Translations under genes and position numbers: made by a program
Part shown: positions 1 to 32,465 of the stretch, piece after piece
Numbering within the stretch: the stretch's first letter is position 1
How the letters are laid out: each line of letters begins with the position of its first letter
Notes under the pieces: generated by a model
The model's database searches: none
What the model was told of the DNA's origin: nothing
Seen by the model: only the letters and a program-made list of their open reading frames with translations
Assembly: GCA_973895155.1 (NCBI GenBank)
Contig: OZ316897.1
Span: 23,473,455 to 23,537,454 of the forward strand
Length of the DNA stretch: 64,000 bases
Source: Marsupella aquatica
Taxonomy: Eukaryota; Plantae; Marchantiophyta
Reading direction: 5' to 3'

Positions 1-1197
1 GGAACGAATTTAAGATTGAATTGACGTACAGGCAGTGTATGCCAGAAGGAGCTAGACGGGAGAGGAATTCACGTTCTACTATAATTGTGAAGATGCGTCA
101 TCACTCCAGTTAAAAAGATGAAGAGCTTCCATTTCGAGGTGATGCCGTACTCTATCCAAAGCGCCCCGGAAGCTCTCTTAAGAGTATTGGAAAAATTTGT
201 GGTGCCAAACTTAAGAGAAGAAACCGCCCTCCCACCAGAAAAGGCCTCACAGAGAGGAGCTGTTGCTCGTCAAGTTGCTTTGGAGATAGTCGAAGACACC
301 AAAGACACTTTGAGTGACAAGTGAAGTTATTCTAACGTTGCTCGGGACGTATGATTTGTAAAATTGTCCAACCATCCTGGTTCGTGTGACCGATGCCACC
401 TATCCGATCTTTGGGAACATTAAGAATTAGGAATTTGAGGAATCGTTATGTTAATTCTTGGGTTCTGAGCCTGAGAGGGAGGAATGGCATACATTGGTTA
501 ACTATCACCTGGTGGGAAGATGAAAGTTTGCATTTAGTAATATTAAGGCTGAATGGTAGGATCACACAGGAGTGATATTTAGTCATTTCCATTCGGGAGT
601 TAGCGGAAAGAATCATGCACCAGGAATTGCGTAGAAGATTAGGAAGGAGTTAGACGTCTGATTAGTAGGATGGCCTAGTGTAGCGTACCATGTGGTAAAG
701 AAATTTCAGGGTGAAGGAAGTCGGAGATTATGGGGAACGCCCGGTTCCAGTAATCGCCACCGTAAAGGAGATAAGGAAGGACGCCGCGAAGAGCGTCCAA
801 TGCGATTCGTCCCAGAAGATTCCGCAAGTCAGGACGCTTCGAGTAGCGTCCGATCCCAGTGGACGCTGTGAGCAGCGTCCGGTGGAATCTGTGACGAACC
901 AACGTGCGCGACGCTTCTGGTGTGCCTTTCCGCGTCTCAACCTGAAGGACGCACCAGAGAAAACGAGGTTTTAGAATCTCGGCTGGTCACTAAAGGGAAG
1001 TATTAGCTACGGGATAGCAAGGGGGAGGAATCATGCAAGGGATGTTGAACGACGCTACGGGAAGTCACTTTGAGGAAGCAGGGTCATATCTCCCGGAGTG
1101 GGGTGATAACGTCGCACCTAAATGGTGACTCCTTGCATAAAGACTCCTGAGGAGCGGGTCTGGTGTCTCAAAATCACCCGTGCTTGGAGAATGAGGG

Positions 1198-4100
1198 ATG
1201 TCTGAGGGAGATCCACCGAATAAAAGAAAACCTACCAAGACCTCCAGTAATTCGGATGCTGCAAAATTAGTAGTGACCCCTCGCACATTGTTACCCGAAT
1301 TCCAGTCACCAGGAGCACCTGCACCGGGTAGTGTGTGGAAACAAGTGGGATCTATTCAAGAGGCAAGTGGCTCTTTGGAAAGGCCCACGTCGACCCGACC
1401 CCTGTTTGTAAATCTTCGTTCAGGTCCAAAACTTATTGGTTCTCAAAAGACCAAGCTCCGCCAGCAGACAGTACGTTCGGTGAACCAAATTGACTCTGGT
1501 GTGGATAGTACCACTGAGAGGGCCTTATCTCATACCGAAGGAAGAAATTTGGGTTTGCCCGAGAATACAGTTGCAGAATCGCTGGCCCAAGATAATTCTG
1601 TCGATCTTTCACAATTGGATAATCCAGAACCACTGAGTGAAGCCGGTGGTTCGTCTTCTAGTGAGACAAGCAGCAGTTCAGGCTTGGGCAGCCCAAACCC
1701 ATTTGCTACCCGATCAGCTCTTCCTTTCGTTACCCTCCTAGCTCCAACCACGATGGCTCGAAATAATGTGAGGTACGACCGGTTCTTCGGTACTTCCAAG
1801 GAGGATGCAGAGGTGTATTTGAAAGAATTTGAAGCTGCAGCTGCATCCAATGGACAGAGTCAAGACGCTGAAAAAGCCAATCTGTTTGGTGGTCTAATGA
1901 AAAAGGGTGCTCAGAAATGGTATGACCGTTTTCCGGACAAGCAGGATTGGGGGAAATTGAAGGCTGCTTTCTTGGCCAAATATAAAGAAGAAGGAGCAGC
2001 TGCGCGTGCCTTTGCCCGAATCTCACATCTGCACATGAAGAAACATGGGTCTGTGAGGAAATATGCCGACAAATTATTGGATTTGGTAGATCAATATAAT
2101 CCAGCTACCTCGAAATCTACTATCAAGGACTGGTTTATTAACGGTTTACCCTCCAGGATTGCTCGTTACGTGAGACGAGAAGGTGGCACCACTTTGGAAG
2201 AAGTACAAGAGGCAGCCCAGAAGTACGTAGACTCGGAGATTTCAGAGAGAAAACGAGTTAAGAAGGACCTGAAGAAAGACAAAAGAAAGAAGAAGAAAAC
2301 GTCCAGGTCTAAATCTGACTCGGAGACGGAATCAAGTGAAAGTAGCACTAGTGAGGAGGACGAGAGTACAAATTCGAGCACTAGTGATAGTTCAAGCTCA
2401 AGTTCCGACTCAGAATCCGTTGCTCCTAAAAAGAAGAAATCCTCTGTAAAAGGGAATAATAAAGTTCCCAACCAAAAGAAGATGGATCGCATGATGGAAG
2501 AACTCTCTGGCCAATTGTCCAAGTTGAATGTCAATATCGCCGCGGTAAAACCAGTACGAAGGTTGCCTGCTCCCATGAGAATGAACGTATGGTGCACCCG
2601 ATGCAGTCAGCAGGGCCATTACCCGAACGAGTGCCCCACATTACGAACCCCGGTGAATTATGTAGATGGTCAAGAAGAGGCTGAGGAGTATGAGTACGAT
2701 CCCACGTATACCGTCCAAACAGCACCCCCTGGACAGTATTTCCCACCACCTCCTGCTTCCAGACCGACTTGGGGACCACCTAAGCCCACTTTCAATAAAC
2801 CAACGTCAAGACCACCCATGGGACCCCCGGGAGGATACCCACCACGAGGAATGCCGCGTCAAAAAGGGGCTTGTTGGAATTGTGGCCAACCTGATCATTA
2901 TTCACCCCAGTGCCCTTATCCCAAACAGGAGGTGGGGTATACACCTGTCTGTGGGAACTGTGGAAAAGAAGGACACTTACCGGTGGAATGCCCGAATCCG
3001 GCTAAGCCTAGGCTGATGGTTCGATTTGCTCAAGAGCCAGTTAAAGAAGCAAGTCGACCTGAAGCCAAGATTCGGATGGTTTATTCTGAAGAGATGGAGC
3101 AATGCAGCTTCATTCAACATATGGATGTAAATCGGGTGGAATTAAAGCCAGATTCACTTTTTCATCAACCAGTATCCGGGGTGGTGCCTGATGTCTTGGT
3201 AAGTCATTTAGTGAAACCTGAAGTAGTTGGTATGCCGAATGATCGAGTTCAGAATCGGGATAAAGTTCTGACTAATATTTACGCAACTACTCGTTCGAAG
3301 AAAAAGGAGACCAAGAAGCACGAGCATCAGAAGGTCGCGAAAGCTCCCAAGGATGAAGGGCGCAAGCCATGTAAGGAAGGCCTCGACAAAGAAGACGACC
3401 CTGCTTATGACCGATATGACCCAAAATACTTCTTGCCCGACATCTCTTTGGAAGTGAAAGACCATCTGGAAGAGCTAGTTAAGGAGCAAGTGCAATCTCC
3501 TAACCCACCAGTAGTAGTCAAAGCTAAAGAGCCACTGAAAAATCCAGGTTATGATATTGTTGAAGATGTCAAGAATCATCCTGCACATATCACCATTGGG
3601 GAATTATTACAGGACAATCCGGTTTATAGGCGACAGCTGAGGAGCCTCCTTGCAGGAAAACGGAGGAAGAAGAAGTTACCTTCTGTGGATGTGCTACGAA
3701 CAGAGTGGGAGGACAAAGGACCGATGGAAATTGAGGTTCAAATCCAGGGGTGTGTCATTCGGAGAGTTCCTGTGGATGGAGGAGCCAGCGTTAATCTGAT
3801 TACACAGTCAGCAGCATTTAATTTGGGTTTCACTAAGTTTGAGCCCACTCCCAAGATTTTGCGCATGGCGGATCAGTCTCGTGTGGTACCCATAGGGAAG
3901 CTGACCAAAGTAGAAACTTTGATTGCTGGTGTCCCTTTTCTGTTGGATTATGTGGTTATTAATCCGGAAATACCATCCAGCTTTCCTGTTTTGTTAGGCC
4001 GACCATGGTTGTATAAGGCTCAAGTTCAGGTTAATTGGCAATCTCAAGAGCTTTCATTTGGGAAGCCTAAGGTGACTGTTAGTTGGGTTCCGGAACCACA

Positions 4101-4251
4101 TTTTGGAGAAACACAAACAGATGATGGGTACACCTCGGATTTTTCGACCTCTTCGCTAGTCCTGCAGCCATTGGAATTTGAACTGGAGGAAGTTCGTTAC
4201 TTGGAAGTTTATCTGTCTGATGCTCCCATAAAACCAACTAGGCCCTCCTGA
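1198..4251 (+). CDS. gag: Gag-protease polyprotein
   Basis: 1017 aa. Retrotransposon gag domain, three CCHC knuckles (CTRCSQQGHYPNEC, CWNCGQPDHYSPQC, CGNCGKEGHLPVEC), and an aspartic protease (VDGGASVN...LLGRPWL). Confidence 0.93.
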   Translation: MSEGDPPNKRKPTKTSSNSDAAKLVVTPRTLLPEFQSPGAPAPGSVWKQVGSIQEASGSLERPTSTRPLFVNLRSGPKLIGSQKTKLRQQTVRSVNQIDSGVDSTTERALSHTEGRNLGLPENTVAESLAQDNSVDLSQLDNPEPLSEAGGSSSSETSSSSGLGSPNPFATRSALPFVTLLAPTTMARNNVRYDRFFGTSKEDAEVYLKEFEAAAASNGQSQDAEKANLFGGLMKKGAQKWYDRFPDKQDWGKLKAAFLAKYKEEGAAARAFARISHLHMKKHGSVRKYADKLLDLVDQYNPATSKSTIKDWFINGLPSRIARYVRREGGTTLEEVQEAAQKYVDSEISERKRVKKDLKKDKRKKKKTSRSKSDSETESSESSTSEEDESTNSSTSDSSSSSSDSESVAPKKKKSSVKGNNKVPNQKKMDRMMEELSGQLSKLNVNIAAVKPVRRLPAPMRMNVWCTRCSQQGHYPNECPTLRTPVNYVDGQEEAEEYEYDPTYTVQTAPPGQYFPPPPASRPTWGPPKPTFNKPTSRPPMGPPGGYPPRGMPRQKGACWNCGQPDHYSPQCPYPKQEVGYTPVCGNCGKEGHLPVECPNPAKPRLMVRFAQEPVKEASRPEAKIRMVYSEEMEQCSFIQHMDVNRVELKPDSLFHQPVSGVVPDVLVSHLVKPEVVGMPNDRVQNRDKVLTNIYATTRSKKKETKKHEHQKVAKAPKDEGRKPCKEGLDKEDDPAYDRYDPKYFLPDISLEVKDHLEELVKEQVQSPNPPVVVKAKEPLKNPGYDIVEDVKNHPAHITIGELLQDNPVYRRQLRSLLAGKRRKKKLPSVDVLRTEWEDKGPMEIEVQIQGCVIRRVPVDGGASVNLITQSAAFNLGFTKFEPTPKILRMADQSRVVPIGKLTKVETLIAGVPFLLDYVVINPEIPSSFPVLLGRPWLYKAQVQVNWQSQELSFGKPKVTVSWVPEPHFGETQTDDGYTSDFSTSSLVLQPLEFELEEVRYLEVYLSDAPIKPTRPS

Positions 4252-7224
4252 CAATTAACTTCATCATCGGAAGTGGGCCCAGCAGCAGACGAACCTCCTA
4301 ATACTGAGGCTAATAGGGATTTACACCATGATATGGGAGTGTCAGCTACCCTTGAGCCATTTGCACCAGAAGTATCCAAACTTGGACTTCAGCCGGCAAA
4401 CCTCACGGATGGAATTGTGGATCCAAAAGCTTGTCAGAAAATCGAAATTGAGCCAGGCAAGTTTTTGAATATTGGTAAGCATATCGAAGGAGAGCTACGG
4501 GAACAGTATATCAGTTTATTAACCCAGTATAAAGATGTCTTTGCCTGGAGTCATTCTGATTTAAAAGGTATCCATCCACATTTGGGCGAACATCGTATTG
4601 ACCTTATGGAAGGAGCAGTACCTGTCCGACAGAGACAGTACCGTTTGAATCCCAAATATTCCATCCTGGTTAAAGACGAGTTGGACAAGCTCACGACTGC
4701 TGGATTTATCTACCCGGTCTTGAGTAGTGAATGGGTCTCACCAATTGTCATTGTCCCCAAAAAGCCGGGACCCGATGGTAAAACGAAAATTCGCGTTTGT
4801 CAAGACTTCCGGAAGTTGAATGCTGCCACTCGGAAAGATCATTATCCTTTGCCATTTATTGATCTGGTACTTGATTCAGTGGCCTTGCATGAGTTATACA
4901 GTTTTTTAGATGGGTACTCTGGTTATAACCAGGTGTCCATTCGGAAGGAGGATCGCGACAAGACTACGTTCACCACCGACTGGGGTACATATGCATTTAC
5001 CATGATGCCTTTTGGGCTGTGTAATGCCCCGGGTACTTTTCAGCGCATTATGATGATTATTTTTCAAGAATATTTGCGGCATTTCATGGAGATTTTTATT
5101 GACGACTTTTGTGTTTACGGGTCAGCGGCTGAACACCTCGTCCATTTGGAGAAGACATTTCAGAAGTGTAGAGAGGCTCAGTTGTGTCTTCATCCAGAAA
5201 AGTGCTTTATTGGTATGAAGGAGGGAATTTTGTTAGGCCATGTTATTTCACAACGCGGCATTGAGGTTGATACAGAGAAGGTTAGAGTAATTATGGAGTT
5301 GCAACCACCGACCGATTTAAAGCAGCTTCGTGCTTTTCTGGGACATGTGGGGTATTATCGTCGGTTCATTTATAAACATGCTAATATTGCCTTACCCTTA
5401 ACCCAACTGTTAAAAAGTGATGTGGAATATACATGGAATGAGGAGCGGCAGCAAGCATTCCAGTTGCTCAAGGATCGGTTAATCTCTGCACCTATTTTGT
5501 CACCCCCAGATTGGACTAAGAAGTTTCATGTCTTCATTGACTCTTCTGCGTTCTGCATTGGAGGTAATCTCAGTCAGAAGGATGTGGAAAACCGTGACCA
5601 TCCAATTTACTATGCCAGCCGCCAAATGAGTGCAGCCGAGAAAAACTACTCCGTCACTGAACGGGAAGCTTTGGCCATCGTCTTTGCGTGTAAGAAATTT
5701 CGTCACTATTTGTTGGGGTATCAGGTTACTTTTCACACTGATCATAATTCCTTAAAATATTTGGTTAACCAAGTGGATCTCTCAGGACGAGTAGCCCGCT
5801 GGGTTTTACTACTCCAAGAATTTGATTATGAAGTTCATGTCCGACCTGGCAAACATCATGAGAATGCAGACTTCCTATCTCGGTTACCTGGTCCGGAGAA
5901 TCAGCATAATCTCTCCGATGAATTTCCTGACGAGCATTTGTGGCACATTGAAGGGGAGTCTTCTCGATATTTTAATATTGTGCACATGCTGCTTCATGGA
6001 ACGTTCCCTGAAGGCTTTAATGCGGAAGAACGAGTTGTCTTTGCTCATAAGGTGGGTCCCTATACCATTATTCGGGGCACTTTGTTTAAACAAGGTCCTG
6101 ATCAACAATTGCGACGTTGTCTAGAGGATAGGGAACTTCCCCAAGTAATTGAAGCTTTACATTCAGGAGAAACCGGTGGGCATTATGCTGTGAATACCAC
6201 AGTTAAGAAAATTTTGGATGCTGGATACTGGTGGCCTACTATGCATCGAGATACTTACAATTTTATTAAGACCTGTGATCCCTGTCAAAGGATCGGGAAG
6301 CCCACTGCTAGTTCCAAATGGCCTCTTACGCCTATCCTTCCGTTGGCACCATTTGAGAAATGGGGGATTGATTTTATTGGCCCAATTTCTCCAGCAGCTC
6401 GGAAAAGCCGAAGCAAATATATTATTCTGGCCACTGATTATGCCACCAAATGGGTAGAGGCGAAAGCTACTCGCAAGAATGATGCTATAACCGCAGCTGC
6501 ATTTCTCTTTGAGCACATTATCACCCGGTTTGGTTGTCCTTTGGAGTTGGTAAGCGATAGGGGTTTGCATTTTCTTAACTCAACTATTGAGTTAATCACT
6601 GACCTTTATCTTATCAAGCATCGCAAAACTACTCCTTACAACCCCCGAGCTAATGGCTTAACCGAGAGAGCTAATGGCATTATGGGCAAGATTATGAATA
6701 AAATGGTAGAATCTCACAAGACAGATTGGGATGTGAAGCTCCATTCTGCATTATGGGCTTACCGCACCGCTGAGAAGATTACAACTCTTCACACCCCCTT
6801 CTATCTGACCTATGGCCTGAATAGTATTATTCCAATAGAATTTTCGTTACCAACGGAACGTATCTTGGTACCACACCGACTCTCTCCTTCAGATAGTCTC
6901 TCACATCGGTTTTCCAATATTGTTAAATTAGAAGAAGTTAGACTTTTAGCATTAGACCATACAGTCACCATTCAGAACCAGCGTAAACTTGCTTATGATA
7001 AGAAGCTGCGCGTAGTGCAGTTAGATGTTGGTGATTTAGCATTAGTCTTTGATTCTCGTTATATGCTATTTCCTGGGAAACTTCATACTCATTGGATTGG
7101 TCCTTACCGAGTTACACACATCTGGGATAATGGTTCAGTTTCATTGACTACCTTAGATGGTCACCCACTTAACACTAGAATCAATGGGTTTAGGATTAAA
7201 CGGTACTATGAGTCTTCCATTTAG
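4252..7224 (+). CDS. pol: Pol (RT-RNaseH-integrase), in frame with gag-PR across a single TGA
   Basis: RT motifs RVCQDFRKLN, LDGYSGYNQ, MPFGLCNAP and FIDD; RNase H DSS..ERE..TDH; integrase HHCC, WGIDFIG, SDRG, NGLTER and a GPY-like WIGPY. Confidence 0.95.
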   Translation, partial: QLTSSSEVGPAADEPPNTEANRDLHHDMGVSATLEPFAPEVSKLGLQPANLTDGIVDPKACQKIEIEPGKFLNIGKHIEGELREQYISLLTQYKDVFAWSHSDLKGIHPHLGEHRIDLMEGAVPVRQRQYRLNPKYSILVKDELDKLTTAGFIYPVLSSEWVSPIVIVPKKPGPDGKTKIRVCQDFRKLNAATRKDHYPLPFIDLVLDSVALHELYSFLDGYSGYNQVSIRKEDRDKTTFTTDWGTYAFTMMPFGLCNAPGTFQRIMMIIFQEYLRHFMEIFIDDFCVYGSAAEHLVHLEKTFQKCREAQLCLHPEKCFIGMKEGILLGHVISQRGIEVDTEKVRVIMELQPPTDLKQLRAFLGHVGYYRRFIYKHANIALPLTQLLKSDVEYTWNEERQQAFQLLKDRLISAPILSPPDWTKKFHVFIDSSAFCIGGNLSQKDVENRDHPIYYASRQMSAAEKNYSVTEREALAIVFACKKFRHYLLGYQVTFHTDHNSLKYLVNQVDLSGRVARWVLLLQEFDYEVHVRPGKHHENADFLSRLPGPENQHNLSDEFPDEHLWHIEGESSRYFNIVHMLLHGTFPEGFNAEERVVFAHKVGPYTIIRGTLFKQGPDQQLRRCLEDRELPQVIEALHSGETGGHYAVNTTVKKILDAGYWWPTMHRDTYNFIKTCDPCQRIGKPTASSKWPLTPILPLAPFEKWGIDFIGPISPAARKSRSKYIILATDYATKWVEAKATRKNDAITAAAFLFEHIITRFGCPLELVSDRGLHFLNSTIELITDLYLIKHRKTTPYNPRANGLTERANGIMGKIMNKMVESHKTDWDVKLHSALWAYRTAEKITTLHTPFYLTYGLNSIIPIEFSLPTERILVPHRLSPSDSLSHRFSNIVKLEEVRLLALDHTVTIQNQRKLAYDKKLRVVQLDVGDLALVFDSRYMLFPGKLHTHWIGPYRVTHIWDNGSVSLTTLDGHPLNTRINGFRIKRYYESSI

Positions 7225-7607
7225 AATTCCACCTGGGACAGGTTGCAATTTAAGTGGAGGGCGGTAGTTATACTTAGTTAGAATTAGTGACCCTCCCTAG
7301 TAAGTATTCGGCATATTTTTTTAATTTTTTTTAGTTACTTTCAGTTTTTACATTGGACGCTGTGAAAAGCGTCCATTGTAACTCGACGCTGGGGAAGCGT
7401 CCACTTAGTTTACAAAGGACGTTGTGCAGAGGTCCGCTTTTGTATTAGTTCAGTTGCATGAGACGCTGTGAGCCGATGACTAGGCATCTTGTACAATGGC
7501 GGATTGCGACAGCTCAACGGGACGCTGAGGAGTAAGCAGTCGCGCTTCGCCCTAGTTCACTATGGAACACGATTCTCACTGAGCTTACGGAGCTAACAAG
7601 TCACGCG

Positions 7608-10181
7608 ATGGCGGAGACTGAGCTGACGACGCGACCAATACTCGCAGACATTCCATCGAATGCAGTGCATAGGCGGCAGTTGAAGACGGCTCTGGCAAAA
7701 ATGGGCTTGAAGAAGCTGCTTCAACTTCCTTGGAAGATTTGCGAATTCAGACTTATCGATCAAGGTGTCTGGGACGCTGAAGAAAGGATTGGTGTGCGCT
7801 CGCGTCCCAGTGTTTGGACTGAAGCGCTCATAGCGAAGGTCTATTCGACGCCGATGGAGGGCGAGGATTTACAGAGGGTTGATTGTGAGCCTCGGGTTTA
7901 TGTAGAATCCTTCTTCGCTCCAGGATCTTTCAAGAGGCGGAATGGATGGCTAGCGGCGGACTGCTTAGATAATTCTCTGCAGCGTCTATTTCGATTTCTG
8001 GCACCAATTTTCTACCCAGAAAGCCAGACGCGCATCACTCTTTCGTTCGCTGCAACGGTGATCTGTTCATTAGAACAGACGCAGTCTATCAATTGGACGA
8101 AGGTTTTGCACCGAGTAATTCATACTCAGGTCAAAAATTTTCGTAGCAGGCTGAAAACGGGGAAAATAAGGTGTACCTACTTGGCCCCTTATTTAGCTCA
8201 CATTTACCATAAGTATGACTGTCTGCTTGTCTTGGAAAAAGATTTTTATCGCAACAATCAGAGAGCATCTACCGGTGAAGCAAATTATATGCCTGAAGTA
8301 CGAGAAGTCCGAGCCAATTCCACAGTGGTAGAGCTATGTGCAATACTCGACTGTGAGGAACCTGAACTGGTGGGTGAAGTTCGGAAATTGAAAGAGACAA
8401 GAGCATCAGCTGAAGGGAGTGACGATCCGATTCTTCACCAACCAAGAGAGGCTCAAGTTGCCGAAGATGTTCCTTCAGCAATGCCAACAGGGTTGGAGCA
8501 TTCTATGTCACCTCGACTCTCGTGTTCACCTTGTGCTGCCGAGCCTATTTATGATGTTGATCAGGATAATTCTGCTTCTCGGATGAATGTTGAAGATGAG
8601 GTGAGGGTGGATGAAGAAGGTTTTTCAGGGGAACCTCTTCAACATTCTACTGCTGAGGACGAGTATGATGGATTTACTTCTACCCCTGTTTTGGTTCCCA
8701 TAGAGGCAAATAGTGATGCTTTGCAGGCTTTACAGGAGTATGATTCGTCCGACTCTCTTAGTTCTAGCCCAAATATAGGTGAAATCCCTCTGGTCCAGGA
8801 GTCAGAAATATTAAGCTCAGAAATTGTGAAGCTGGTTAAAGTTGATTCGGAGGATGCAATTGTGGATATAGACGAAGTAGGTGAACCAGTGACTTCTCCC
8901 CAATCTGTCGCAAGATACCCTGCCTGGTCTACACCTGGTTCACTCATATCGATTCCTTTGGATATAACTAAGGAATTAGATGAGGCAATAGCCGCGATAG
9001 GAGCTCCTTCATTTCCGCCTGTAAAATGGGTTTCTCCTGAAGATGAGTTGATTGAAGGAGGCTCTGCTGGTTTTCCGAGTCGCAATCAGGTATCTGGTAA
9101 TATGGGTATATCTGTACCCATATTGGTACCCGAGACACCCGCTTCGACAACCAGCTCAGCACCAGTTTCATTGGCTACAAACGAGGATAAAAACATTCGG
9201 GAGGAGTTTTCAGTGACGTATACTCGAAAATCTTGGAAACGGTTGCGCCATGCTATCAGTCGACAGATCTTTCCTGAAGCATCTTCCCAGGATTTTGAAC
9301 AGGGAGAAGCACCTATCGGAACAAACGAGCTACCCCTTCCTGTACTTTTGACAGATCGAACTAACCAGGAAGTCTCTTTACCTAGCGATAATTTTAAAGA
9401 AGAACTTCCTGTTTTAGTACCAATGCATCCCATTGCAGATCAACCAGCTACTGTTGCAAGAGAAGAATTTGAACCACTGGAGCCCGAACCTTCTGCTCCT
9501 TCGTCTCCTGTTACATTGCCAATTCGACCAGTTAAGGAGTCAGTGATTCCTTCCGCTATGCCAGATGTAATTTTCCGTTGGATAGGAGCACCAAGTGATG
9601 GAGAAGAAGACGAAGACCCTCGCATTATCAGAGTACCTCCTCGACTTCGGCATACAGTGGATTTGCCACCCCGAAATCCTATCCCTAATTTGGCTTCAAT
9701 TCACAGGTGGGAGAAGAAACATTTTCGAGTAGCTTTTCGACATCTGGAGATGGAGAGCATTTTGCAGCAGCAGCAGATTTTGCCAATGACATCCCATCCG
9801 AGGATTCGTAGTTTGATTCGCACATATGAACCTGGGAAGGCGGTTCCTCCCATTGATAAGGACAGACGACATAAGTTTTCGGAGTTCGAAATTTGGTGTT
9901 GGGTGTATATGCTTCGACGAGCTCAAGCTCCATTTCCGCCCCTTGTGCCGGAAATTCCATGGCCCTATCCATACTATGTTTGGGTTTGTCCTGGTGGGTT
10001 TGCTATTCCAATTAAATATGAGAAGAAGCTTGTTAAGCTAAGGGAGCAGTTGATTACAAAACAATGTATGCTACCGGCTTCCCAAGGGTTCAAGTCGCTT
10101 AGGTGTTTAGCGTTCCTACCTATTATTCCTTCTTATCCGGATTTGATTATTCAAGGTGTTTTATCTAGGACACAGATTTGA
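7608..10181 (+). CDS. Extra ORF3 of the gypsy element: N-terminal plant-mobile-domain/plant-transposon-protein-like region plus an acidic, proline-rich tail
   Basis: Uninterrupted 857-aa ORF between integrase and PPT. The N-terminal ~210 aa aligns by eye with the ORF of the 4.7-kb LTR-like unit. No obvious transmembrane helix. Confidence 0.7.
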   Translation: MAETELTTRPILADIPSNAVHRRQLKTALAKMGLKKLLQLPWKICEFRLIDQGVWDAEERIGVRSRPSVWTEALIAKVYSTPMEGEDLQRVDCEPRVYVESFFAPGSFKRRNGWLAADCLDNSLQRLFRFLAPIFYPESQTRITLSFAATVICSLEQTQSINWTKVLHRVIHTQVKNFRSRLKTGKIRCTYLAPYLAHIYHKYDCLLVLEKDFYRNNQRASTGEANYMPEVREVRANSTVVELCAILDCEEPELVGEVRKLKETRASAEGSDDPILHQPREAQVAEDVPSAMPTGLEHSMSPRLSCSPCAAEPIYDVDQDNSASRMNVEDEVRVDEEGFSGEPLQHSTAEDEYDGFTSTPVLVPIEANSDALQALQEYDSSDSLSSSPNIGEIPLVQESEILSSEIVKLVKVDSEDAIVDIDEVGEPVTSPQSVARYPAWSTPGSLISIPLDITKELDEAIAAIGAPSFPPVKWVSPEDELIEGGSAGFPSRNQVSGNMGISVPILVPETPASTTSSAPVSLATNEDKNIREEFSVTYTRKSWKRLRHAISRQIFPEASSQDFEQGEAPIGTNELPLPVLLTDRTNQEVSLPSDNFKEELPVLVPMHPIADQPATVAREEFEPLEPEPSAPSSPVTLPIRPVKESVIPSAMPDVIFRWIGAPSDGEEDEDPRIIRVPPRLRHTVDLPPRNPIPNLASIHRWEKKHFRVAFRHLEMESILQQQQILPMTSHPRIRSLIRTYEPGKAVPPIDKDRRHKFSEFEIWCWVYMLRRAQAPFPPLVPEIPWPYPYYVWVCPGGFAIPIKYEKKLVKLREQLITKQCMLPASQGFKSLRCLAFLPIIPSYPDLIIQGVLSRTQI

Positions 10182-10193
10182 AGGACACCATTT

Positions 10194-10670
10194 ATGAGAG
10201 ATATCAAACGGTGTTGTCATTTATATGTATATAAGCCGTTACTTTTGCAGCATCCTGCAATTGTTTCCTTCTTTCTCCTTCGAATTGATATTTATCTGCT
10301 CATGTGGGACATCAAAGCTACTATGGATTGTTGGAATTCTTTACCCCGTGCTTTCCAACATTCCTTTGAAGGCAAGATCAAACTGGGAGGACATGCTATT
10401 CAACACTTTGTTATTGATCCAGGCTCTCGAATTAATTTCCTCTCCCACAGACTGTGCCAGCAATTTGTTCATCAAGAAGTACAACCGATATCTGCTCAGA
10501 TATCAATCGATGGACGAATCATTAATCTTTGGGGAAGAGTTAAAGGAGTCCCAATACAGATCGGAGAAGAATTCCATGACCTCGATTTTTATATTCTGGA
10601 TTCGGATATCTCCCAACTCCCGTCAATGATTTTGAGCACTACTTGGATTATTAAGCCAGAATATTATTAA
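10194..10670 (+). CDS. Second retropepsin-like aspartic protease ORF
   Basis: FVIDPGSRINFLS...GRVKGVPIQIG..DFYILD..MILSTTW follows the LxDSGA/..ILGxxW retropepsin pattern. Confidence 0.6.
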   Translation: MRDIKRCCHLYVYKPLLLQHPAIVSFFLLRIDIYLLMWDIKATMDCWNSLPRAFQHSFEGKIKLGGHAIQHFVIDPGSRINFLSHRLCQQFVHQEVQPISAQISIDGRIINLWGRVKGVPIQIGEEFHDLDFYILDSDISQLPSMILSTTWIIKPEYY

Positions 10671-10729
10671 TGAAGAACATGTCACTCGCTTCTGATTCAA
10701 TTCGGTCATGTCTTGTGGGGACACGGCGA

Positions 10730-10745
10730 AATTTAAGTGGAGGGC
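10730..10745 (+). promoter_or_regulatory. Polypurine tract
   Basis: AATTTAAGTGGAGGGC ends 2 nt before the LTR TG; an identical 16-mer lies at 7247-7262. Confidence 0.65.
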
Positions 10746-10747
10746 TA

Positions 10748-12197
10748 TGTGGTATGGGTGTCCCTGCAATTTTTTCTGGAAACTTGTTTATTTTTAGCAT
10801 ATCACAAGATTTACTTACACTTTAGACACCTTCCGGCCAACATTTACTTGTTCTGGACACTTATAGAAATATTTGACATCTCCGGCTTTCCTGACGATTC
10901 CTAGTGTACTTTGCCCGACGCTGTGACCAGCGCCCGTTTCTTTTACTCAAGACGCTGCGGAAGCGTCCAACCTCCTCATGACGCTTTTGGCAGTGCCCGA
11001 CCGCCACCAAGACTCTATGAGGATTTCGACCGACGCTGTGGAAAGCGTCAGCTTCAACACACAACGCTGTGAGCAGCGTCCACCCTAGTATCGACGCTGT
11101 GAGCAGCGTCCACCCTAGTATTGACGCTGTGAGCAGCGTCCACCCTAGTATTGACGCTGTGAGCAGTGTGAGCAGCGTCCGTTGGTTTTACTTAAGACGC
11201 TTCTAGCAGCGTCCAGATTCTCCCGACGCTTCTAGCAGCGTCCGCTCAACACTTAGTTTTTGAAGTAGATTACTAGTAAAGTAGTATTCTACCACCCTTG
11301 TTGAAGTACTTATGCTGTGCTTCTCCCTTGTTTAGTTTTAAGCTTGGAAAGGCACGACTGTTCTTACCTCCTCCATTTTAGGATTCCAGCACTTATAAGA
11401 CAGAGTAGAATGCTCATTTGAAGTAGAGAGAAATAGAGTTAATACTGTATTCAGAATTGAGTCTTCTGAATAGTTTTCTCCTCCTTCCATTGTAACAAGG
11501 CATGCTGTGAGTGTTTTGTATGGAAGTAAAGCTATATTGATTGAAGTTAAGATTGAATTCAAGAGATTCCTGTGGTGATTGAATTCAGTTGCAGATTTCT
11601 GAAACTCGTATTGAATTCACTGCTAGGCTTGCTTGCAGAGTCGGGATTCGCTAGCCAATTCAAGAATAGTTAATGATAAATGAGAAGTAAATTCTGATTC
11701 TCAGAGTAGTTAGTACTGTTGCTTTGATTCTGGAATATGGTTTAGAGTTTGACTGAATTGCGTATCGCTGATGTCAAACCATGTTGACGGCATTTTAAAT
11801 CATATCATTCATTTGCAATCAGAAAGCTTCTGTTTCATCAGATTGAGAATTCCATTATCATTAACCTTTGTGTTTTGAAGAGTGAGATGGATGAATTATG
11901 AGATAGATTTCATGTCTATACTGAGCCCAAATCCTTTCTGAAGGAGTGGCAGTAGCAGCTTGTAGTCTCTAAATCCTTACTCATTTCTTCTCTAATTCAT
12001 AAATCAGAAGTTCAGTTACTTTGTTGTTTGTTTATTCGATTTTTTTATTGAGAAGTGAAGTCAACATAGAGCTCAAGACTCTAAATCACTCGGAGTGATA
12101 AAAGTTATACAATTCATTCTGAAATCTGTTCTTAAAGGGATCGAAACCCTGGTTTTAGGTGAGGAGAGTCACTTTTGATACTTAGCACTATACGACA
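10748..12197 (+). repeat. 3' LTR (~1450 bp) of the gypsy element
   Basis: Starts TGTGGTATGG after the PPT and ends CTATACGACA (8/10 inverted match). Sequence switches to the DNMT coding region immediately after. Confidence 0.8.
11063..11180 (+). repeat. 30-bp tandem repeat containing a GACGCTG-TGAG-CAGCGTC hairpin
   Basis: About 3.5 copies of GACGCTGTGAGCAGCGTCCACCCTAGTATT inside the LTR. Confidence 0.9.
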
Positions 12198-12767
12198 ATC
12201 ATCACCTAACAATGGCACATTCTCCAAAATGTATGCTGGAGACTGTGTCTGATGTAGCTGGAGATGACGCAGCTGGAGATGACGCAGAGCGTGGATCATG
12301 AAGTCCATGCCCAACGCCAGCTCTAGATTGGCCCTGACATGGCCAACCAGCAATCACCAAATCAATGGGGCCAACACGATGCAGATAATCTGCCCCCAAC
12401 AATGAAATATCAGCAGGTAGTGCATGCTAATAACCACGAACAACATCCACTGGCAGCAATTGTGGAATCTATCCACCAACATAGCCACCTATCGCAATGA
12501 GACCCTCTGTGCTGTCTCATCTGACTCCACATACAAATAACGATGCACAAGAATTCCTGCCTGAAGAATAGCAGCCAATCCAATGCTAATCCCACCAAAA
12601 AGATCTAACAAACAAATACCCTCCGGTGGATACTGCCAAGCAATAGGAGTGATATCCAATGGTGAAAGAGTCACAGGTCCATCTGCAAGAGGCTGCTCTG
12701 CTCCTGACTGTGGTGTAAAAGCATGACGCCATGCATCATGTACCAATCGTGCTGCTGTCTGTGGCAA
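12198..12767 (-). pseudogene. Cytosine-5 DNA methyltransferase domain (N-terminal half)
   Basis: Motif I LLDLFGGIS, motif II YLYVE, motif IV IDLVIAGWPCQGQSRAG and motif VI YILENV. Contains stops and frameshifts. Confidence 0.88.
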
Positions 12768-12770
12768 GGC

Positions 12771-13790
12771 CTATGCAGTGCCCCACACTGGTGGCACAAC
12801 ACTACCAACAGGTAATCCTTGCATGATGTGCTCCTTATGAGACTCCTCCAATGGTGGAACATCTGTTGCATGCGCATTACCCTCAATAAAATCATCAGGT
12901 CTAGCAATTAGACCACTGAATGCTGCCAAAGACAATGGTGTGGATTTAGGGCCTCCCACAGGTCCACTAAATCTCACTGGCAATTTTCTCAATCGAGCAT
13001 CTCCTGACTGCCAATCAGGTCTATATGACACTGATTCCTCCCAAAAATCAAGAATAAATCCCATGGGGTAGAGCACTGTACATCCCACCAACACATCATA
13101 TGACTCTGCCTTAGTCAGAATAGCTCGCGCCTGTATCTGTGAGCTATCTGTGGTATGACCTTCCTGAATCCTCAAATCAAGAGGTCTCCTGGTAATGTGC
13201 TGTGTAGGTGTAGGTCCCCCCAATGAAGTCTGAATGGGAAAGGGACAATCCTCCAAATCCTCTGGACGCAATCCCAATCCACGTATGGCAAACTTTCCCA
13301 ACATCAAGGGCTGAGCACCAGTATCCAGTAACACCCTCTCTGGCTGGTATACTGCTCTAGAAGGCCCAACTAATCGGAAGATACCACTCCGATTATCCAA
13401 TGATACAACACTAGGTTTAAACCTAGTCCTCTCAAATGCAGGGCGTGCTGATAAATCCACCAACCTCGCTGCTGCTGCATGCCATGTCTCACTAGTAGCA
13501 GTAGGTGACATGGTCTTCACTGCATCAACACTGCAAGTTGCTTCTGCATGGGAAGCAACCACTGGAGTGTCCTCACAGAGTGTAGCTGCCAATCTGAACA
13601 CTTTTGCAGGACCAACTCCCAAGTTCAGCATGTTTGTCGCTGAAAATAATGGGGCACGTACCATGGCAGTAGCCGCCCCCAGCAAGGTACCTGTCATCCC
13701 TGCTGCATCACTACCTGATTCTGCCAACTTACCCACATCAGGGTTTGTCCGAACCGGGTTCATAGAGGCAGTCTGAACTGTCTCTGACAA
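12771..13790 (-). pseudogene. Retrotransposon aspartic protease region
   Basis: VLLDTGAQPLML...YDVLVGCTVL. In frame with the DNMT ORF across one TAG. Confidence 0.8.
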
Positions 13791-14042: not shown

Positions 14043-15377
14043 CTAGGAACTAGCCATGGCAGCTAGCTGTTGCTCCAATTGAGCAATCTTAGCATCCTTT
14101 GGATCTATGGTTATAGTAGGGGCAGCGTCACCTCCCTGTCTCCCTGCATGTGGCATGCCACGACCACGTCCACCGCCTCTACCTCCTCCTCTTCCCTGAT
14201 TATGTGTACGGGATCCTCCTCTCCGTAACTCAGGATGGAGTGAGAAACACCTATCCTTGGTGTGTCCAGGAGCTCCACAATGATCACATTGTCGTTGATC
14301 AGGCGCTGATGCTCCCCCTGATCCTCTATGATCTGGGCAATATCTTTGTGCATGATCCCCACCACAGGTCCAACATCCTGACTGTTGTCCAGCATAAGAG
14401 GGCACAGGTCTCTGGCTGGTAGACTCTCGTGCAGTAGGCTTCTCCCTCTGGCTCTTCCGTGCAGTAGGCTGTGGTGTGGATGTGGATGCAGCCTTTGGTG
14501 CTTCCTTGGCAAATCCGGAAGTCACCACCTTCTCATTCACCATATTGAGCTCAATGCGCTCAAAAAGTGTAAAAACATCTGCTAATGTGGGATCTGCATC
14601 CCTAAGCAGAGTGACATCTCTCACTCTGCGTCGCAATTCTCTATCCAGAATTGCATACCAAAACTGGACTGCCTGAGCCTCTGTCACTCCCTTGGTGACA
14701 GTGATCAATCTGCCCATACGAGTGTATGCCTCACGTAGACTCTCTCCAGTCTTGTGCTGGAACTCCTGAAGACCCTTCAACTTATCAGTTCTTACACCCT
14801 GATAGTTCTGCTTCAGTACCTCAAAGAATTCCACCACAGGGTTAAATGCTGGCGCAACTCAAGTTCCTGTCACAATCACACCGGCAGGAGTAGCGGTGGA
14901 TGCTGTTGGAGTGCTGCTGGTGGATGGTGTGCCACTCTAGCTAGTGCTGCTAGAAGAAGCAACAGTTGTGGCAATGGGTTGGGCAGCCGCACTAGTGCCA
15001 TAGGTGATGGACACGTAATTAGGCGACCAATGCTACCTCCATGCCTCAATCTCAACCAAATGAGCCTTCCAAAACTCATGGTAGTCATCCATGGGTGGCC
15101 CCTCCAAATGCTGAAATAATCCCTTCCATGCCATGAAAGGGGTAAACAATGTGGCGTTACGCAATGTCTGCACATCGTACCACATATCAAACTCCTGGAT
15201 GAAGTCATCCAGATCAATCGTGCCAACTGCACCAGAGTATCGTCGTGGGCCCTTTGTAGCCCCGTACATCTCGTCCATATCCCACAACAAAGGTGCAACC
15301 ACCTGATGATGAGGAGAACTGGTCACTGAATCCTCATCAGAATCACTGTCTGAAGCTGCATTGCTGACTGCTACCAA
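14043..15377 (-). pseudogene. gag: Gag of the DNMT gypsy element (frameshifted)
   Basis: RYSGAVGTIDLDDFIQEFDMW, LQEFQHKTGESLREAY, and knuckles CWTCGGDHAQRYC and CDHCGAPGHTKDRC. Confidence 0.8.
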
Positions 15378-15420
15378 TGCCGCTGGCCGAAATTATGCCC
15401 CACTTCGAGTGAAACCGGTC

Positions 15421-16447
15421 TGTCATCCATCGGGTAATCCAGCAGCACCAAAAGAATCCGTGGTGACCAACCCTAACCTAATCTATGTGCTAACCCTAAG
15501 GGCAATCTATCCCTGTCAGCACCACAAGCACTCACCTTGGTGTGTTGGGCATCACTCCAACATCACCAGGAAAGAAATACACAGCACACTAGAATGTCCA
15601 GTTGCAAACCCGGATCACTCCTATGGAATCAAGCGCCCACACCGAACCAACATGGCGCATAAACAGGAAACAAGTGTGGAGAGGATCCAATCAACAAGAA
15701 TAGTCAAACACTAACTCTCCACACCAAGAGTGATCACACATTGATCAAACAAATATTCATAATGTTCAATGAAAGGCCTTCATAATAGGCTTCATGATGT
15801 CCCAATGTTATAGATGAGAAACCATGCATAATTGGTTCAATCTGTGTATTTAGATGAACTCAGAACTATCAAAAACCTCTAAATGAGCCTATGATTTGGC
15901 CCGAAACAAGGCTCTAAGCAAACCGGAAAGTGTATAAAGCCCCCTGGCGCTTGAATCTAAACAACAAGTTGTGAAAACTTGTGTGTACACAAGATGGGAT
16001 GAGAACTTGCCAATTAAGCGCTTGCGGCTGGGAATAGCCCCGGGATGGGTGACCTCCTCGCGCTCGACCTCGTGCCTCCCCTCGCGCTCACGAATTGGAA
16101 TAGCCCCGGGATGGATGGGTGACCTCGACCTCGTGCTTGCTTGCGCTCGCGATGGGTGACTTTGCGCTTGCGGTTGGGGGCACTTTCGGGATGGGTGACC
16201 TCACGCATCGCCTTATGCGCGCACAGTTGTGTGTGTATACAAAATAGAAGTCGTCGGGCTCAGAAATGGCAACATTTGCCACTCAAAAGCAGCGATTTCC
16301 TTCACAAAAATGGCAACGTCAATGGCTCTTGACCTCTGCAAACCTGTTGCGCACGGTTCTGGGACATTTTGTGAGCGTCCCTTGACGATAAAACGCTGCG
16401 AGCACTCAAAATTCCAACAGATCTGTCCACAAAACAGCAGTGTGACA
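15421..16447 (-). repeat. 5' LTR (~1027 bp) of the DNMT gypsy element
   Basis: Minus strand reads TGTCA...TGACA. The right end interrupts the LTR-like unit ORF at GACA|CCTGG. Internal GGGATGGGTGACCTC repeats at ~16030-16200. Confidence 0.75.
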
Positions 16448-19400
16448 CCTGGAAAGGCTGGGCGGCGACCCTACCGGAGGAAGTGCAATTACACTTTGCA
16501 CGGGAGGAGGATGCATGCTTTACAGCCATGCAGACCAAGAAGTACCAAGGCTTCATGGCCGGATCCGGCTTGGAAGCTTTCGTAAGATTACCAGGGCTGA
16601 AGCCCGAGGTGCCGGACTCAGACTTGTTAGAATTCGTGGGATCATGGGAACCCGAGACCAATTCCACGAGGGTGTATGGGAAGGATTTCTATCTCACTCC
16701 CCGGGTGATTGCTGAAGTGTTTGGCTTGCCGATGGGTAATAAGACCAAGGTTGATACTAGGAAGACCTTACCTGACAAGGAGTTTCGGTCGTTCCTAGGA
16801 CCATCAACAAAGAATGGCTTCTTCCGAAACACCTGCACCAACCCGCACATCGGAGAGATGATCGATTTCTTGCGGGTGACCATGCACTGTAACTTTCCGA
16901 GGGCAGAGATCGGCAAGGCTCAGGTCTACCTGGCAGAAAGGCCAGACCCAAGCCGGGATTACAACGGGTACCTCCTCAACCAACTGAAGAAGATCTTGAA
17001 GGAGGAACAGCAGGTGATCGGCGTGGGAAGCGTGTCCCGGCTTGGCTATCACATGCCGCTGTTGTGCCGGTATGCCATAAGTCAAATCTTTGCCCCAGTA
17101 CTTCCCCTATCGACAAGAGCACCGGAGGAGGTCCCAGAGCAGAGGCCGGCACCAGAGAAGCCCAACCAGCCTGACAGTCTGACGATCGAGCAGGTGTTTA
17201 GACCAAGGAAAGAAGACTTGCCGATGCAGCAACCAGGCATGCAGAATCTGCTGAAATTGCTGGAGAAGGAAAGGAGAACGGTTCCGGCAACAACAACAAA
17301 ACCGGCACCGATACAAGACGCTGCCCCAGAAGCCGACCTAAGCCGGCTTACAAGGGAAAACCCCTTTACTAGAGTCAAGGAGAGAGGGAGGCCGGAACAT
17401 GAGTCGGGAGTCCGGATGTATGTAGGAGCCTCAAGTCCCGAAGCCGAGGAAAAGCAGGCCGTAGCTCCCGACCACGACAAGGAGAACAAGAGATCAACAC
17501 GGAAGCCGGAGGAGGAACCAAGACCGGTGAGAGGTGAAGCCGTGTTCACAACAAAACCAGGACAACAGCGGGAGAAGCCGGTAGTCCAAGCCGAGGAGGA
17601 GGCGGTAGAGGACTACAGCAATGATGACTCCGGCTATGGGTCGGATCATCATGTTCCAGGAGTAAGGACCTGTGGCCGGTTCATCCCCACGCTCCCAAGA
17701 GTAGTTCGAGGAGACCCAAGCCAACAGAGCAGCCCCGAGTCTCCCCCACCAGATGTCGCTCCCCCGAGCTTTGACAGCATAAAATAGACGGTGTAGGAAT
17801 TTCAGGAGCGAATCAGGGAGGAAGAGGAGGCAGCCCTGGCTAGGGAAAAGGATTTACCAGGAGGAGAATGGCCAGAGGACATCAGGCGGCTTGCAGAAAA
17901 ACAAAGCAACCCTCTTGCCACCGTAGAAGAAATCCGCAAGACGGCTTGGGAGCAGAGGCCGCGGTGGTTGATGCCGATGACTTCTAGTTACTCCACCTAT
18001 GCTAAGGATAGAGCCATCGAGTACGGGGAAATGCGTGGAGAGCTGGCGCTCAGCATCTTTGGGGAGGAGTTGGAGCAAGGACCCTTTTTCCAGAGGGAGA
18101 TGTTGGAGAAGCGCCAATTAGAAGAAGCGGTGACTTTGGAAAGAAGCAAGAAGGACGAGGTCATCCGTCAGCTTAGGGCAAGAGAAGCCAAAATCAAAGA
18201 CCTGAGGGCGGCCAAGAAAGCCCAAGATGAACTGCGGATAAAGCGGCATGAGCTAAATATCATGCAGGGCCAATTGGATACCGCACAGTCTGATAATCGG
18301 ATTATCGAGAATAAACTGACTCGAACCCAAGGAGAGTTCGTCGATGCGATCAAGGAGCGGGAGAAGTGGAAGCGAGAGCTGAGGGATGCAGAGGAGGCCC
18401 ACATAACGGCCAACAACCGGGCCATGGCGGAGACCCAGAGAAGGGAAAGGGCATTGAAGGGGGAGCTCGAGGTTATCCACGGAGCCCTTGAGAAGAAGGA
18501 GGCCGAGTTAGGGAAATCCTATCAAGGGATTATTGCGCTGCAGCAAGAGCTTGCGTCCCTGACGGCCAGCTTCAAAGCCGACCTGCGTGAGAAGGACAAT
18601 ATGCTCGATCAGACTTATGCCAAGATGAACCAGATGGAGTCTGTCATCATTGCAGAGCTCGACAAGGAGTTAAGAGCGACCCAGGAGGAGAGAGTTGCGT
18701 TTAAAAAGGAATTGGAGGAAGCCCAGAAGGAGCTGGAGGAGGCGTGCAAGGACCTGGAGGAGGCGTGCAAGGACCTGGACGAAGTGCAGGAGGAGTTGGA
18801 GGAAAGCACGCGGAAGCTAGAGAACTTACAACGACGAGCCGACAACCAAACGGAGCGGCTGAAGAAACAAGCCGCAGTATTTAAGTGCTTGGCTTCATCA
18901 GGGCCAACTCAAATTGAGGCCACTAAGTTACCAGGAGTGGTACTAGCCGAAGGACAAACCGCGCCATTTGCACCAGTGCTGGAAGTAAGTAAGAAGGGGA
19001 AGGGGCCAGCTGCCGAACCAGAAAAGAAGAAGAAACGGAAACCTTCAGGGTCAAGGAGTAATACGGCTCCACAGGCCGTGGTGACCATGGAGGTAAACCC
19101 AGCACCGACCTCAGGCAGGATTACGGTAGAGGATCCAACTACCCTAGAAGGGGATGACAAAGCCAAGGCCAGGATACTCGGTAATGAAGCCGAGGTACCC
19201 AATCTGCCACTTAAGTGTGCAAGGGAGGCCGTAGGCGAGGCTGAGGCCGTAGCCGAGGCTGATGTTGAAGCCGATACCGTAGCCGATGCCGGGGGTGGAC
19301 CCAGTCAGGCCGATGGAGAGTTGACTCAGTCAAGGACAGGTAATCTGTCAAAGAACGAACCTACGGCAGTGGCTGAGGAGGAAGCATTGGGGGCATCCAT

Positions 19401-20329
19401 TGAGGGACAGACACCGTTGCCATGACGGTGGTGGAGGGCTGCTCCTTTCAAGGAGGGCGGACGTGGAGGGAGGAGGCGTGAGTGGGCAGGGCGGGCTCAG
19501 ATCTCTAAGTTTAGGATTAGGATCAGGACCAGGAGGCGGCCCTGACACTTAGCTTAGTGGGATTGCGGTTCCACTGGTAAGAGCAACACTTGTACTCCTG
19601 CCTCGCTGTACATAGGTAGATTCAGTTAGGTAGATTAGGCTTACGCTGCAAAGAATTAGGCGGATCCACTACCAGGATAAGTACCTGGGCAGCGGGGAGC
19701 TCAGGGCCTCTTCTTTAGCAAGTTTTTAGTTGCACCAGCCAGGCTGGGATCAAGTAGTAAGAGAAGCTCTCGGTTAGTCATACAATGACCCTTGTGTATA
19801 TTCATGTTTCCTCATGCCTAAGAGCTGAATAGAGTTGGCCTCACGGCTTAGTTCGCAGAGCTTGTGTATGAGATGTACTGTTTGTATGGCAAGTGCATGG
19901 TATGACTCAGTCAGAAGGAGTCATTTTGCTATTTGTGTGTCGCATTAACTTGTGTGAAGAGTGCCCACATCAACTAATAGATGAAGGAAAGTAAGCAAGG
20001 GAGTGAGAGTTGGATGTGTCGAGCTGAGAGAGGTCTTAGCGGCTTAACCAAGCCTATTGGGGATCATTCCGGCGGCGGAATCCAAATATACCTAACAAGT
20101 AGGAGGGGAAGACAAGGGAAGGCCTAGATTAGGCCGGCTACGTATCTCATGACCCGATGAAGGATCTGTCCAGTATATGTGTGTAAAATGTTAATAGTAG
20201 TAGTAGAGGGAGATTAGCAGCGTCCCATGCCACTAAGCCGCGAAAACGGCCTCGCCAAGCGCAAAACCTGCGGGAATCGGCTTGTGAAGGGGGGTTTCTG
20301 GGGTTTAGGGAGCCATGGGACGCACCACA
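16448..20329 (+). mobile_element. 4.7-kb protein-coding LTR-like unit, copy 1 (5' part displaced by nested insertions)
   Basis: Highly similar to copies 2-4; ends GACGCACCACA. Confidence 0.85.
16483..19425 (+). pseudogene. Unit ORF (PMD-like domain plus long coiled coil) with in-frame stops near 17787-17796
   Basis: ORFs 16483-17787 and 17968-19425 are in the same frame. The stops correspond to CAG codons in other copies. Confidence 0.75.
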
Positions 20330-23300: not shown

Positions 23301-23956
23301 TGTATGTCGTTGCAGCGGTTGATGGCCTCACGGATGCCGACTATTATGTTCTCACAAAATAGAAGATCGTCGAGTTCGTTGGCAGTAGGCGTCCACAAGA
23401 ATTCAGCCGTAATGAGTTCTCCTCCTAAGAAGGCAGACTTCTGCAGCTCCCACAGTCGAGCGAGCTCCTGCCGTTCTCGAGCGGCTCTCTCTGATTCTTC
23501 GTCCTCGTAGGTCCCAATGTACTCAGTTGCCCGTTCTAACAGGCATCCCCAAAAAGGAGCAGCTTGATTGACGTTGCTCATACCCTTCTTGAGTTGATTG
23601 TCGGTATCTACTTCCACCCCGAGTGCTTGCCTGAGCAGCGGACAGTAGTTGGCCTCCCGTAGTCGTCTACTTAGTTCGTGCTTGCAAATGAGCCGCCATT
23701 CCTTGCAATCGATCCTTACCCCTCCCTGACTGGTCTTCCTTCCCGTTAGTTACCTATGGCCGTCGGCACTGAGCGCGCCCTAACCCTAATCGTGTTCCTC
23801 CCCCGGGGTTTTTACTTCCGGCCTCGGCTCGGGTTCCATAGCCATCCTTAATTGTTTATATTTTCCATATTTTTGCTACTACACTAATGTGTTTCCAGGG
23901 TTTACTCCTTATTTTATCATTTAAACTGGCCTAGTGATTCCTGGCTAGGCATCACA
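20330..23956 (-). mobile_element. 4.7-kb LTR-like unit, copy 2 (interrupted by copy 1)
   Basis: Minus strand begins TGTGATGCCTAGCC at 23956. ORF pieces at 21824-23617, 20969-21430, 20703-20996 and 20330-20681. Confidence 0.85.
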
Positions 23957-32460: not shown

Positions 32461-32465
32461 AGTAC

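Follow-up and report, generated by a model that had tools for sequence, protein, structure and literature searches.

A DNMT3-like methyltransferase carried by a decayed Ty3/gypsy retrotransposon and its relatives in bryophytes

The minus strand of the window, the whole 64-kb stretch of DNA analysed here, almost certainly holds the dead 5′ half of a Ty3/gypsy retrotransposon that bears a DNA methyltransferase (DNMT), and this domain very probably belongs to the reading frame of Gag and protease (PR). Related elements are multicopy, with homologues in liverworts and in Sphagnum, so that the DNMT-bearing gypsy lineage that a preliminary description of this DNA had placed in bryophytes does occur there. 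As for the task of the enzyme, the chances are slightly better than even that, being carried in the Gag-PR frame, it is packed into the particle and methylates the new cDNA before integration.

Why should a retrotransposon keep a silencing enzyme? This question has been standing since 2018, and the hosts described, Symbiodinium and Klebsormidium, do not lend themselves easily to experiments. Marchantia polymorpha is a genetic model for which methylome data and MET1 mutants are available, and it harbours the lineage, with copies annotated as hypothetical genes; substrate and effect of the DNMT thus become testable. Methylation of the element's own cDNA, likely as it seems, would mean that a trick hitherto described from algae is also used in land plants.

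Anatomy of the window copy

The features of the window are collected in Table 1.

Table 1. Features of the window, with positions counted from the first letter of the 64-kb stretch
Feature	Position	Strand	Remarks
5′ non-coding region	15420..16447	-	varies among copies, by contig depth and loose ends
gag	14043..15419	-	two Cys/His knuckles (14375-14352, 14288-14247); four in-frame stops
Aspartic protease	13020..13349	-	LLDTGA (DTG) at 13331-13308; in the frame of gag
PR-DNMT linker	12624..13019	-	holds TAG at 12773-12771; stretch open in P0024 and other homologues
DNMT3-like C5 methyltransferase, N-terminal half	12198..12623	-	motifs I, IV and VI; two stops; motifs VIII-X cut off
Younger Ty3/gypsy element	1..12197	+	interrupts the DNMT; 3′ LTR ends at 12197; 5′ LTR outside the window
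ORFs of the younger gypsy element	gag-PR 1195-4251; RT-RH-INT 4252-7224	+	both open
Repeat family, four copies	16443-20329 (+); 20330-23956 (-); 49548-54609 (-); 60971-64000 (+)

The three DNMT motifs read, on the minus strand, LDLFGGIS (motif I, 12608-12585), GWPCQG (motif IV, 12348-12331) and LENV (motif VI, 12227-12216). They had been described as lying in the pol frame behind the protease. All three do stand at that place; the frame is another matter. Gag, the protease and motifs I and VI share one frame, whereas motif IV stands alone in another one, the frame being shifted near 12466 and changed again near 12256-12285, where a stretch is replaced or altered in length (a 15-bp tandem duplication). 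Since gag, protease and motif I are in one frame, this is a Gag-PR-DNMT frame and not a separate pol. The C5 methyltransferase starts 130 codons past the protease, and the domain keeps its catalytic Cys and Glu.

The protease scores 2.4e-44 with its own profile built in the analysis, and the two DNMT pieces score 1.6e-20 and 4.2e-13 with a profile from the homologues, while a reversed-window control was empty. Pfam alone missed the protease and motif-I pieces of the window, and its DNA_methylase model gave E 0.0013 for the piece with motif IV, a score short of the curated threshold; the homologues of the window protease do match Pfam Asp_protease_2. In a six-frame translation of all 64 kb, the patterns of motifs I and IV are each matched at a single place, and no second DNMT piece, reverse transcriptase (RT) or LTR of the DNMT element was found elsewhere in the window.

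Upstream, the gag ATG of this copy is at 15278 in the six-frame translation. The Gag sequence is 61% identical to Marchantia P0002 over the first 260 aa of the latter, and the match of P0170 begins at 15419. TGTC at 16447 is either a possible terminus or the break against the neighbouring repeat family, with which five bases are shared (16443-16447). Neither an A-type repeat nor a self-priming pair, of the kinds described below for the relatives, was recognised in 15278-16447.

That the copy is dead, as had been claimed, is plain: seven in-frame stops, that of the PR-DNMT linker included, lie between the gag ATG and the frameshift, and one more is in the motif-IV frame. The claim that the younger gypsy element cuts the DNMT at 12198 also stood. 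The younger element has CA as its last letters, at 12197; some contigs of run X3 part from the window sequence just past this position, and others, of X3 and X4, go on leftward from 12198/12201, where they read as the DNMT does further on in the homologues.

Relatives, their spread and their domain order

Homologues in which the DNMT directly follows the protease came from three protein searches (21, 70 and 40 matches). Those with a name belong to Marchantia polymorpha (many gene models), Calypogeia fissa, Sphagnum fallax, S. troendelagicum, Closterium sp. and Scenedesmus sp., with none from Klebsormidium among them. The DNMT is intronless, in frame with gag and protease, and multicopy, unlike the multi-exon, stand-alone DNMT3 gene of the host. 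Contig pieces related to the element number in the thousands, in four runs of two studies covering the window stretch. No relatives were met in viral contigs or prokaryote genomes by pattern scans, with which close relatives alone are detectable.

A metagenome scan gave 218 confirmed stretches, from which 74 moss-type loci were retained, some of them being one insertion assembled twice. Every one of the 74 is degenerate, with a longest ORF of 508 aa, and 14 of them have gag, PR, DNMT, RT, RNase H (RH) and integrase (INT) in this order. Thus, RT, RNase H and integrase do follow downstream in the relatives, as had been expected for the continuation of the window copy; the matching second LTR expected with them is not there in plain form, and split A-B-A-B repeats are found instead. 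Unbroken full ORFs are known from P0076 and P0119, for which Pfam gives the order gag-PR-RT-RH-INT. The DNA of the window element is only about 65% alike to the peat-moss-type copies, which makes it a member of another subfamily, likely in another host.

The integrase of the relatives has an HHCC domain, a DDE-type core and a C-terminal PHD finger (Pfam; translation of L027). Behind it a chromodomain is absent in the relatives, with the PHD finger in its place. Pfam scans gave no match to a tyrosine recombinase; the polyprotein has an rve integrase.

Trees were built quickly under LG+G4, without rows for host DNMT3 or Klebsormidium. The DNMT tree has 98 rows, among them five moss-type loci, after removal of 24 redundant proteins and of most short fragments; the RT-RH tree has 49. 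The window DNMT, whose row fills 37% of the columns, clusters with P0024, P0125, Marchantia, Calypogeia and Sphagnum (16 rows, SH-aLRT 99), and the five moss-type loci group with the Sphagnum protein. Two domain orders occur, PR-DNMT-RT in Closterium, the bryophytes and the window versus RH-DNMT-INT in Scenedesmus and many others, and they split alike in the DNMT tree (99) and in the RT tree (98).

The DNMT clade has many members: a profile search put 609 clusters, made at 50% identity, below 1e-30, and the DNMT adjoins PR, RT, RH or INT, in either order, in 99 of the 141 new top profile matches. A sister clade with the order RT-RH-DNMT-INT-PHD includes P0052, P0083-P0115 and P0089 (Scenedesmus), makes up 88 of the 141 new profile matches and is set apart by both trees; this order was not met in the literature covered. 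A different case is P0113 (3794 aa), where a LINE-type endonuclease, RT and RNase H are joined to a related DNMT and a PCIF1_WW-family domain. It brings two methyltransferase-linked domains together in a non-LTR element.

The stop behind the methyltransferase

In the moss-type loci, the DNMT is followed by a stop. It is found in frame between DNMT and RT in 50 of the 53 loci covering the site; CAACCC comes after it in 50 loci, and 51 have an ATG in frame there. Likewise, many predicted proteins of Marchantia, Calypogeia and others end 50-180 aa past the DNMT, and this distance is often constant among the members of a clade; P0024 and P0146 have the same end residue, 57 aa past the DNMT, where the end of the contig is also possible. 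The stop places the DNMT in the Gag-PR frame, so that it would be made at Gag levels, and to judge from the frames the bryophyte enzyme would be in excess over RT and integrase. The proteins from RT to integrase would be made only by readthrough of the stop or by reinitiation at the ATG just behind it. The CAACCC context resembles the full CAR-YYA readthrough consensus (PMC2754532) without being equal to it. No such stop exists in Closterium P0054, P0076 and P0119, where a single ORF covers DNMT, RT and RNase H.

Ends, repeats and priming in the moss-type relatives

The complete arrangement is seen in L027, A (340 bp)-coding-B (113 bp)-A-B, and parts of it in L045 and L048 (B-A-B) and in L031, which is cut inside the second A. 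The elements start with TGTC and end with CA, and a perfect 4-bp target duplication flanks seven of the eight evaluable loci (three by eye); therefore, the integrase inserts these elements. Two identical LTRs were not found at the termini, for the outer ends are the start of A and the end of B, the repeats being split. The internal B/A junction is CA-GC-TG, that is, the palindrome CAGCTG, in three of the four loci having the junction. At the A/B junction the sequence is CA-(G/A)T-TG, and a purine run lies ahead of the first B.

How is reverse transcription primed? There is no TGG behind the 5′ A repeat, and hence no tRNA primer-binding site. Instead, a stretch of 9-16 nt that follows the 5′ A can pair with the interior of A, ∼30 nt past a TATA-like box, in 14 of the 26 copies (fold z -2.1). 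With split repeats and no tRNA site, such elements would escape LTR finders, which bears on the annotation of transposable elements, and their copies can inflate the counts of plant DNMT3 genes.

These features suggest a scheme in which the working LTR would be B-A, and a two-unit circle opened at one B/A palindrome would yield A-coding-B-A-B. A one-unit circle would yield A-coding-B, the form of five loci. Indeed, L018, L022, L023, L038 and L067 have only A...B, yet with a perfect 4-bp duplication; they may be one-unit circles opened at the junction, products of B-by-B recombination, or collapses of the assembly.

The enzyme: fold, residues and selection

Compared with solved structures, the family profile is closest to DNMT3A (4e-22), followed by DRM (1e-10), bacterial enzymes and M.HhaI (5e-8) and DNMT2 (8e-5). 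An AlphaFold model of P0024, with a mean pLDDT of 75 that rises to about 90 over the DNMT part, matches DNMT3A, DNMT3B and DNMT3C (DNMT3A at E 8e-18, target TM 0.78-0.83). The motif order is unrearranged, I-IV-VI in the window and I-IV-VI-VIII-IX-X in the homologues. The Cys of motif IV and the Glu of motif VI are present in 97 of 97 homologues, and the two Arg of motif VIII in 93 and 92.

Between the window and the moss-type loci, with dS near saturation, dN/dS is 0.29/1.74 for the DNMT (about 0.17), 0.22/1.57 for gag and 0.39/2.24 for the protease, the constraint on the DNMT being like that on the other two. Among the dead moss-type copies, the ratio is 0.57-0.61 for the DNMT and 0.62 for the protease, compared with 0.36-0.39 for RT, RH, INT and gag. 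By these rates, the DNMT domain appears to be kept under selection over long times.

What the methyltransferase may do

In the relatives, the layout is A - gag - PR - DNMT - stop - RT - RNase H - integrase - PHD finger - B - A - B, and a life cycle can be proposed along it. The DNMT would be produced in Gag amounts, packaged in the particle and freed by the protease. The element's own RNA would prime reverse transcription, and the DNMT would methylate the new cDNA ahead of integration. The DDE integrase, which the PHD finger would hold at chromatin, would then open a circle of two B-A units at one of the palindromic B/A junctions and insert it.

By analogy, the cDNA of the element is rather probably the substrate of the DNMT. 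Methylation of cDNA is the proposal of PMC5890265, where yeast given the related SymbioDIRS-Dnmt3 domains is described as gaining CG methylation de novo; with the KnitGypsy DNMT, no methylation appeared, a result called inconclusive in that paper. The marks left in the DNA are mixed. CpG observed/expected is 0.32 in the window DNMT element versus 0.65-0.67 in two neighbouring elements, a low content that may be explained by age, and four of the 20 best-supported decay sites of the window copy are at CG, in a biased subset (32 of about 650 listed differences). The moss-type copies decay equally at CG and CHG (0.19-0.24), with 0.06 at CHH. This is the pattern that host enzymes would leave, and it counts against self-methylation. 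Their CpG observed/expected, 0.53-0.56, is no lower than that of the flanks (0.40-0.65).

Could the substrate be chromosomal DNA instead? The DNMT would then act after or around integration, on the element's own copies, on flanks or on host genes, and not on particle cDNA. We regard this as unlikely, albeit the least so of the alternatives. An enzyme in the Gag frame need not be fused to RT, the integrase has its terminal PHD finger, and the host DNMT3 of Physcomitrium is described as a de novo chromatin enzyme (PMC6453930, PMC10952607). However, the DNMT itself has no chromatin-reader domain, and other clades fuse it to RT/RH or INT, which points to the cDNA complex.

Another idea gives the DNMT a part in the opening of the circle: by binding or methylating one of the two palindromic B/A junctions, it would leave only the other one to the integrase. 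The prevalence of CAGCTG at the internal junctions speaks for it, as does the company of A-B-A-B repeats and DNMT in the Klebsormidium gypsy and the Symbiodinium DIRS elements (PMC5890265). This is a correlation only, though, the repeats here are known from the moss-type clade alone, and the DNMT3-type enzymes tested so far prefer CG (PMC5890265), so that the idea is doubtful. No firmer is its broadest form, a long shot in which an ancient green-plant clade, from chlorophytes to bryophytes, would consist of PHD-bearing, self-primed Ty3/gypsy elements whose cDNA circle is opened by the DDE integrase at an internal CAGCTG, with a DNMT3 at Gag level methylating one junction as a cut-site switch resembling restriction-modification.

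Equally improbable is that the domain is kept for a role away from DNA, for instance to methylate RNA or to bind nucleic acids, or as a brake on the activity of the element itself. Such roles were raised for SymbioLINE-Dnmt and as a general option (PMC5890265), and the moss-type copies are without a signature of self-methylation. Nevertheless, the motifs and the predicted fold are those of a DNA-acting DNMT3, not of DNMT2, and the catalytic residues are invariant. Methylation of the cDNA in the particle is the reading that we prefer to all of these.

Two further alternatives have little left to them. The TAG at 12773-12771, described at first as the single separator of protease and DNMT, is in frame, and a programmed readthrough site would look so; but it is one among seven stops, the closest homologue, P0024 (71% identical over 391 aa), is open from the protease through all DNMT motifs with a residue at this very place, and the conserved stop sits behind the DNMT, so that readthrough there is very unlikely and the TAG is best taken as a lesion of the dead copy. 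A host DNMT3 fragment captured just once, or a chimera formed by chance in what is after all a nest of insertions, can be practically dismissed, as the same PR-DNMT junction recurs in liverworts, mosses and Closterium, 14 of the 74 loci have the full order, the related contig pieces are so many and spread over runs and studies, and the DNMT is intronless and under purifying selection, which over a long time would by itself rule out a single capture.

Known systems

The closest published system is KnitGypsy-Dnmt3 of Klebsormidium nitens, a gypsy element with a DNMT3 (de Mendoza et al. 2018, PMC5890265). Both have an intronless DNMT3-type domain with unrearranged motifs in a multicopy gypsy polyprotein, together with DIRS-like A-coding-B-A-B repeats, here in the relatives only. 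Purifying selection is reported there with Ka/Ks under 0.2, to be set beside the near-saturated between-lineage value found here and the higher one among dead copies. In contrast, a single ORF of KnitGypsy-Dnmt3 runs through DNMT, RT and RNase H, whereas in bryophytes the DNMT belongs to the frame of Gag and PR and a stop sets it off from RT; the hosts here are land plants. The PHD finger, the 4-bp duplication and the self-priming signal are not mentioned for KnitGypsy-Dnmt3 in the accessible text of PMC5890265. The element probably works like KnitGypsy-Dnmt3 and shares its origin, the likeness being to the published description and not to the sequence.

Other systems share single traits. SymbioDIRS-Dnmt3 is likewise a retroelement with a DNMT3 and A-B-A-B repeats, but it has a tyrosine recombinase where the relatives here have a DDE integrase and target duplications (PMC5890265). 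EpiLTRs/DAM-LTRs (bioRxiv 10.64898/2026.05.21.726589) are Ty3/gypsy elements with DNA methyltransferases and a chromatin reader, as are the relatives, and differ in having DAM, a DNMT4-related DNMT and a chromodomain; the preprint itself sets them apart from a "streptophyte Gypsy-DNMT3". Self-primed Ty3/gypsy elements of the Tf1/Tj1 type also have a primer-binding site complementary to the LTR interior, and Tj1 needs a stop after Gag; they differ by their ordinary paired LTRs and the lack of a DNMT (PMC4600332, PMC6317226). With respect to host plant DNMT3 (PMC6453930) and animal DNMT3A/B, the best profile and fold matches among solved structures, DNMT3A/B/C, have about 22-25% identity. Phygy and Selgy were considered as well; the accessible text of PMC6317226 mentions no PHD or methyltransferase for either.

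No report of a DNMT-bearing gypsy element in a land plant was found in the literature covered, subscription journals and Repbase-type records being outside this coverage. The accessible text of PMC5890265 does not mention Marchantia, and the land plants of its species table include Physcomitrella and Selaginella. PMC12344493 and bioRxiv 10.64898/2026.05.21.726589 speak, in their accessible parts, only of a "streptophyte" retrotransposon DNMT3, referring to PMC5890265, and those of PMC6453930, PMC11982613, PMC6317226 and PMC10952607 have no such element.

Other features of the window

The younger gypsy element has an extra ORF of 881 aa (7536-10181, plus strand) without a Pfam match. Between its gag-PR and RT-RH-INT frames is TGA CAA TTA (4249-4257, plus strand), the CAR-YYA readthrough context described for TMV (PMC2754532).

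The repeat family in Table 1 has two long ORFs, one of them coiled-coil-like, without a convincing Pfam match, and its four copies are 84-96% alike. At 24763-28237 (minus strand) and 28777-32903 (plus strand) there are several degenerate ORFs, those scanned having no Pfam match, and 26864-28237 is a Cys/His-rich stretch; these ORFs are possibly decayed DNA transposons. An intronless PPR-E-DYW RNA-editing factor with 303-nt internal repeats occupies 34901-37498 (minus strand); a gene of this kind points to a land plant as the host, and its protein may be like the editing factors of mosses. Finally, long inverted repeats (83-96%) are found at 56466-57231 and 59594-60249, about 2.4 kb apart, the latter with a 26-nt tandem array at 59771-59900.
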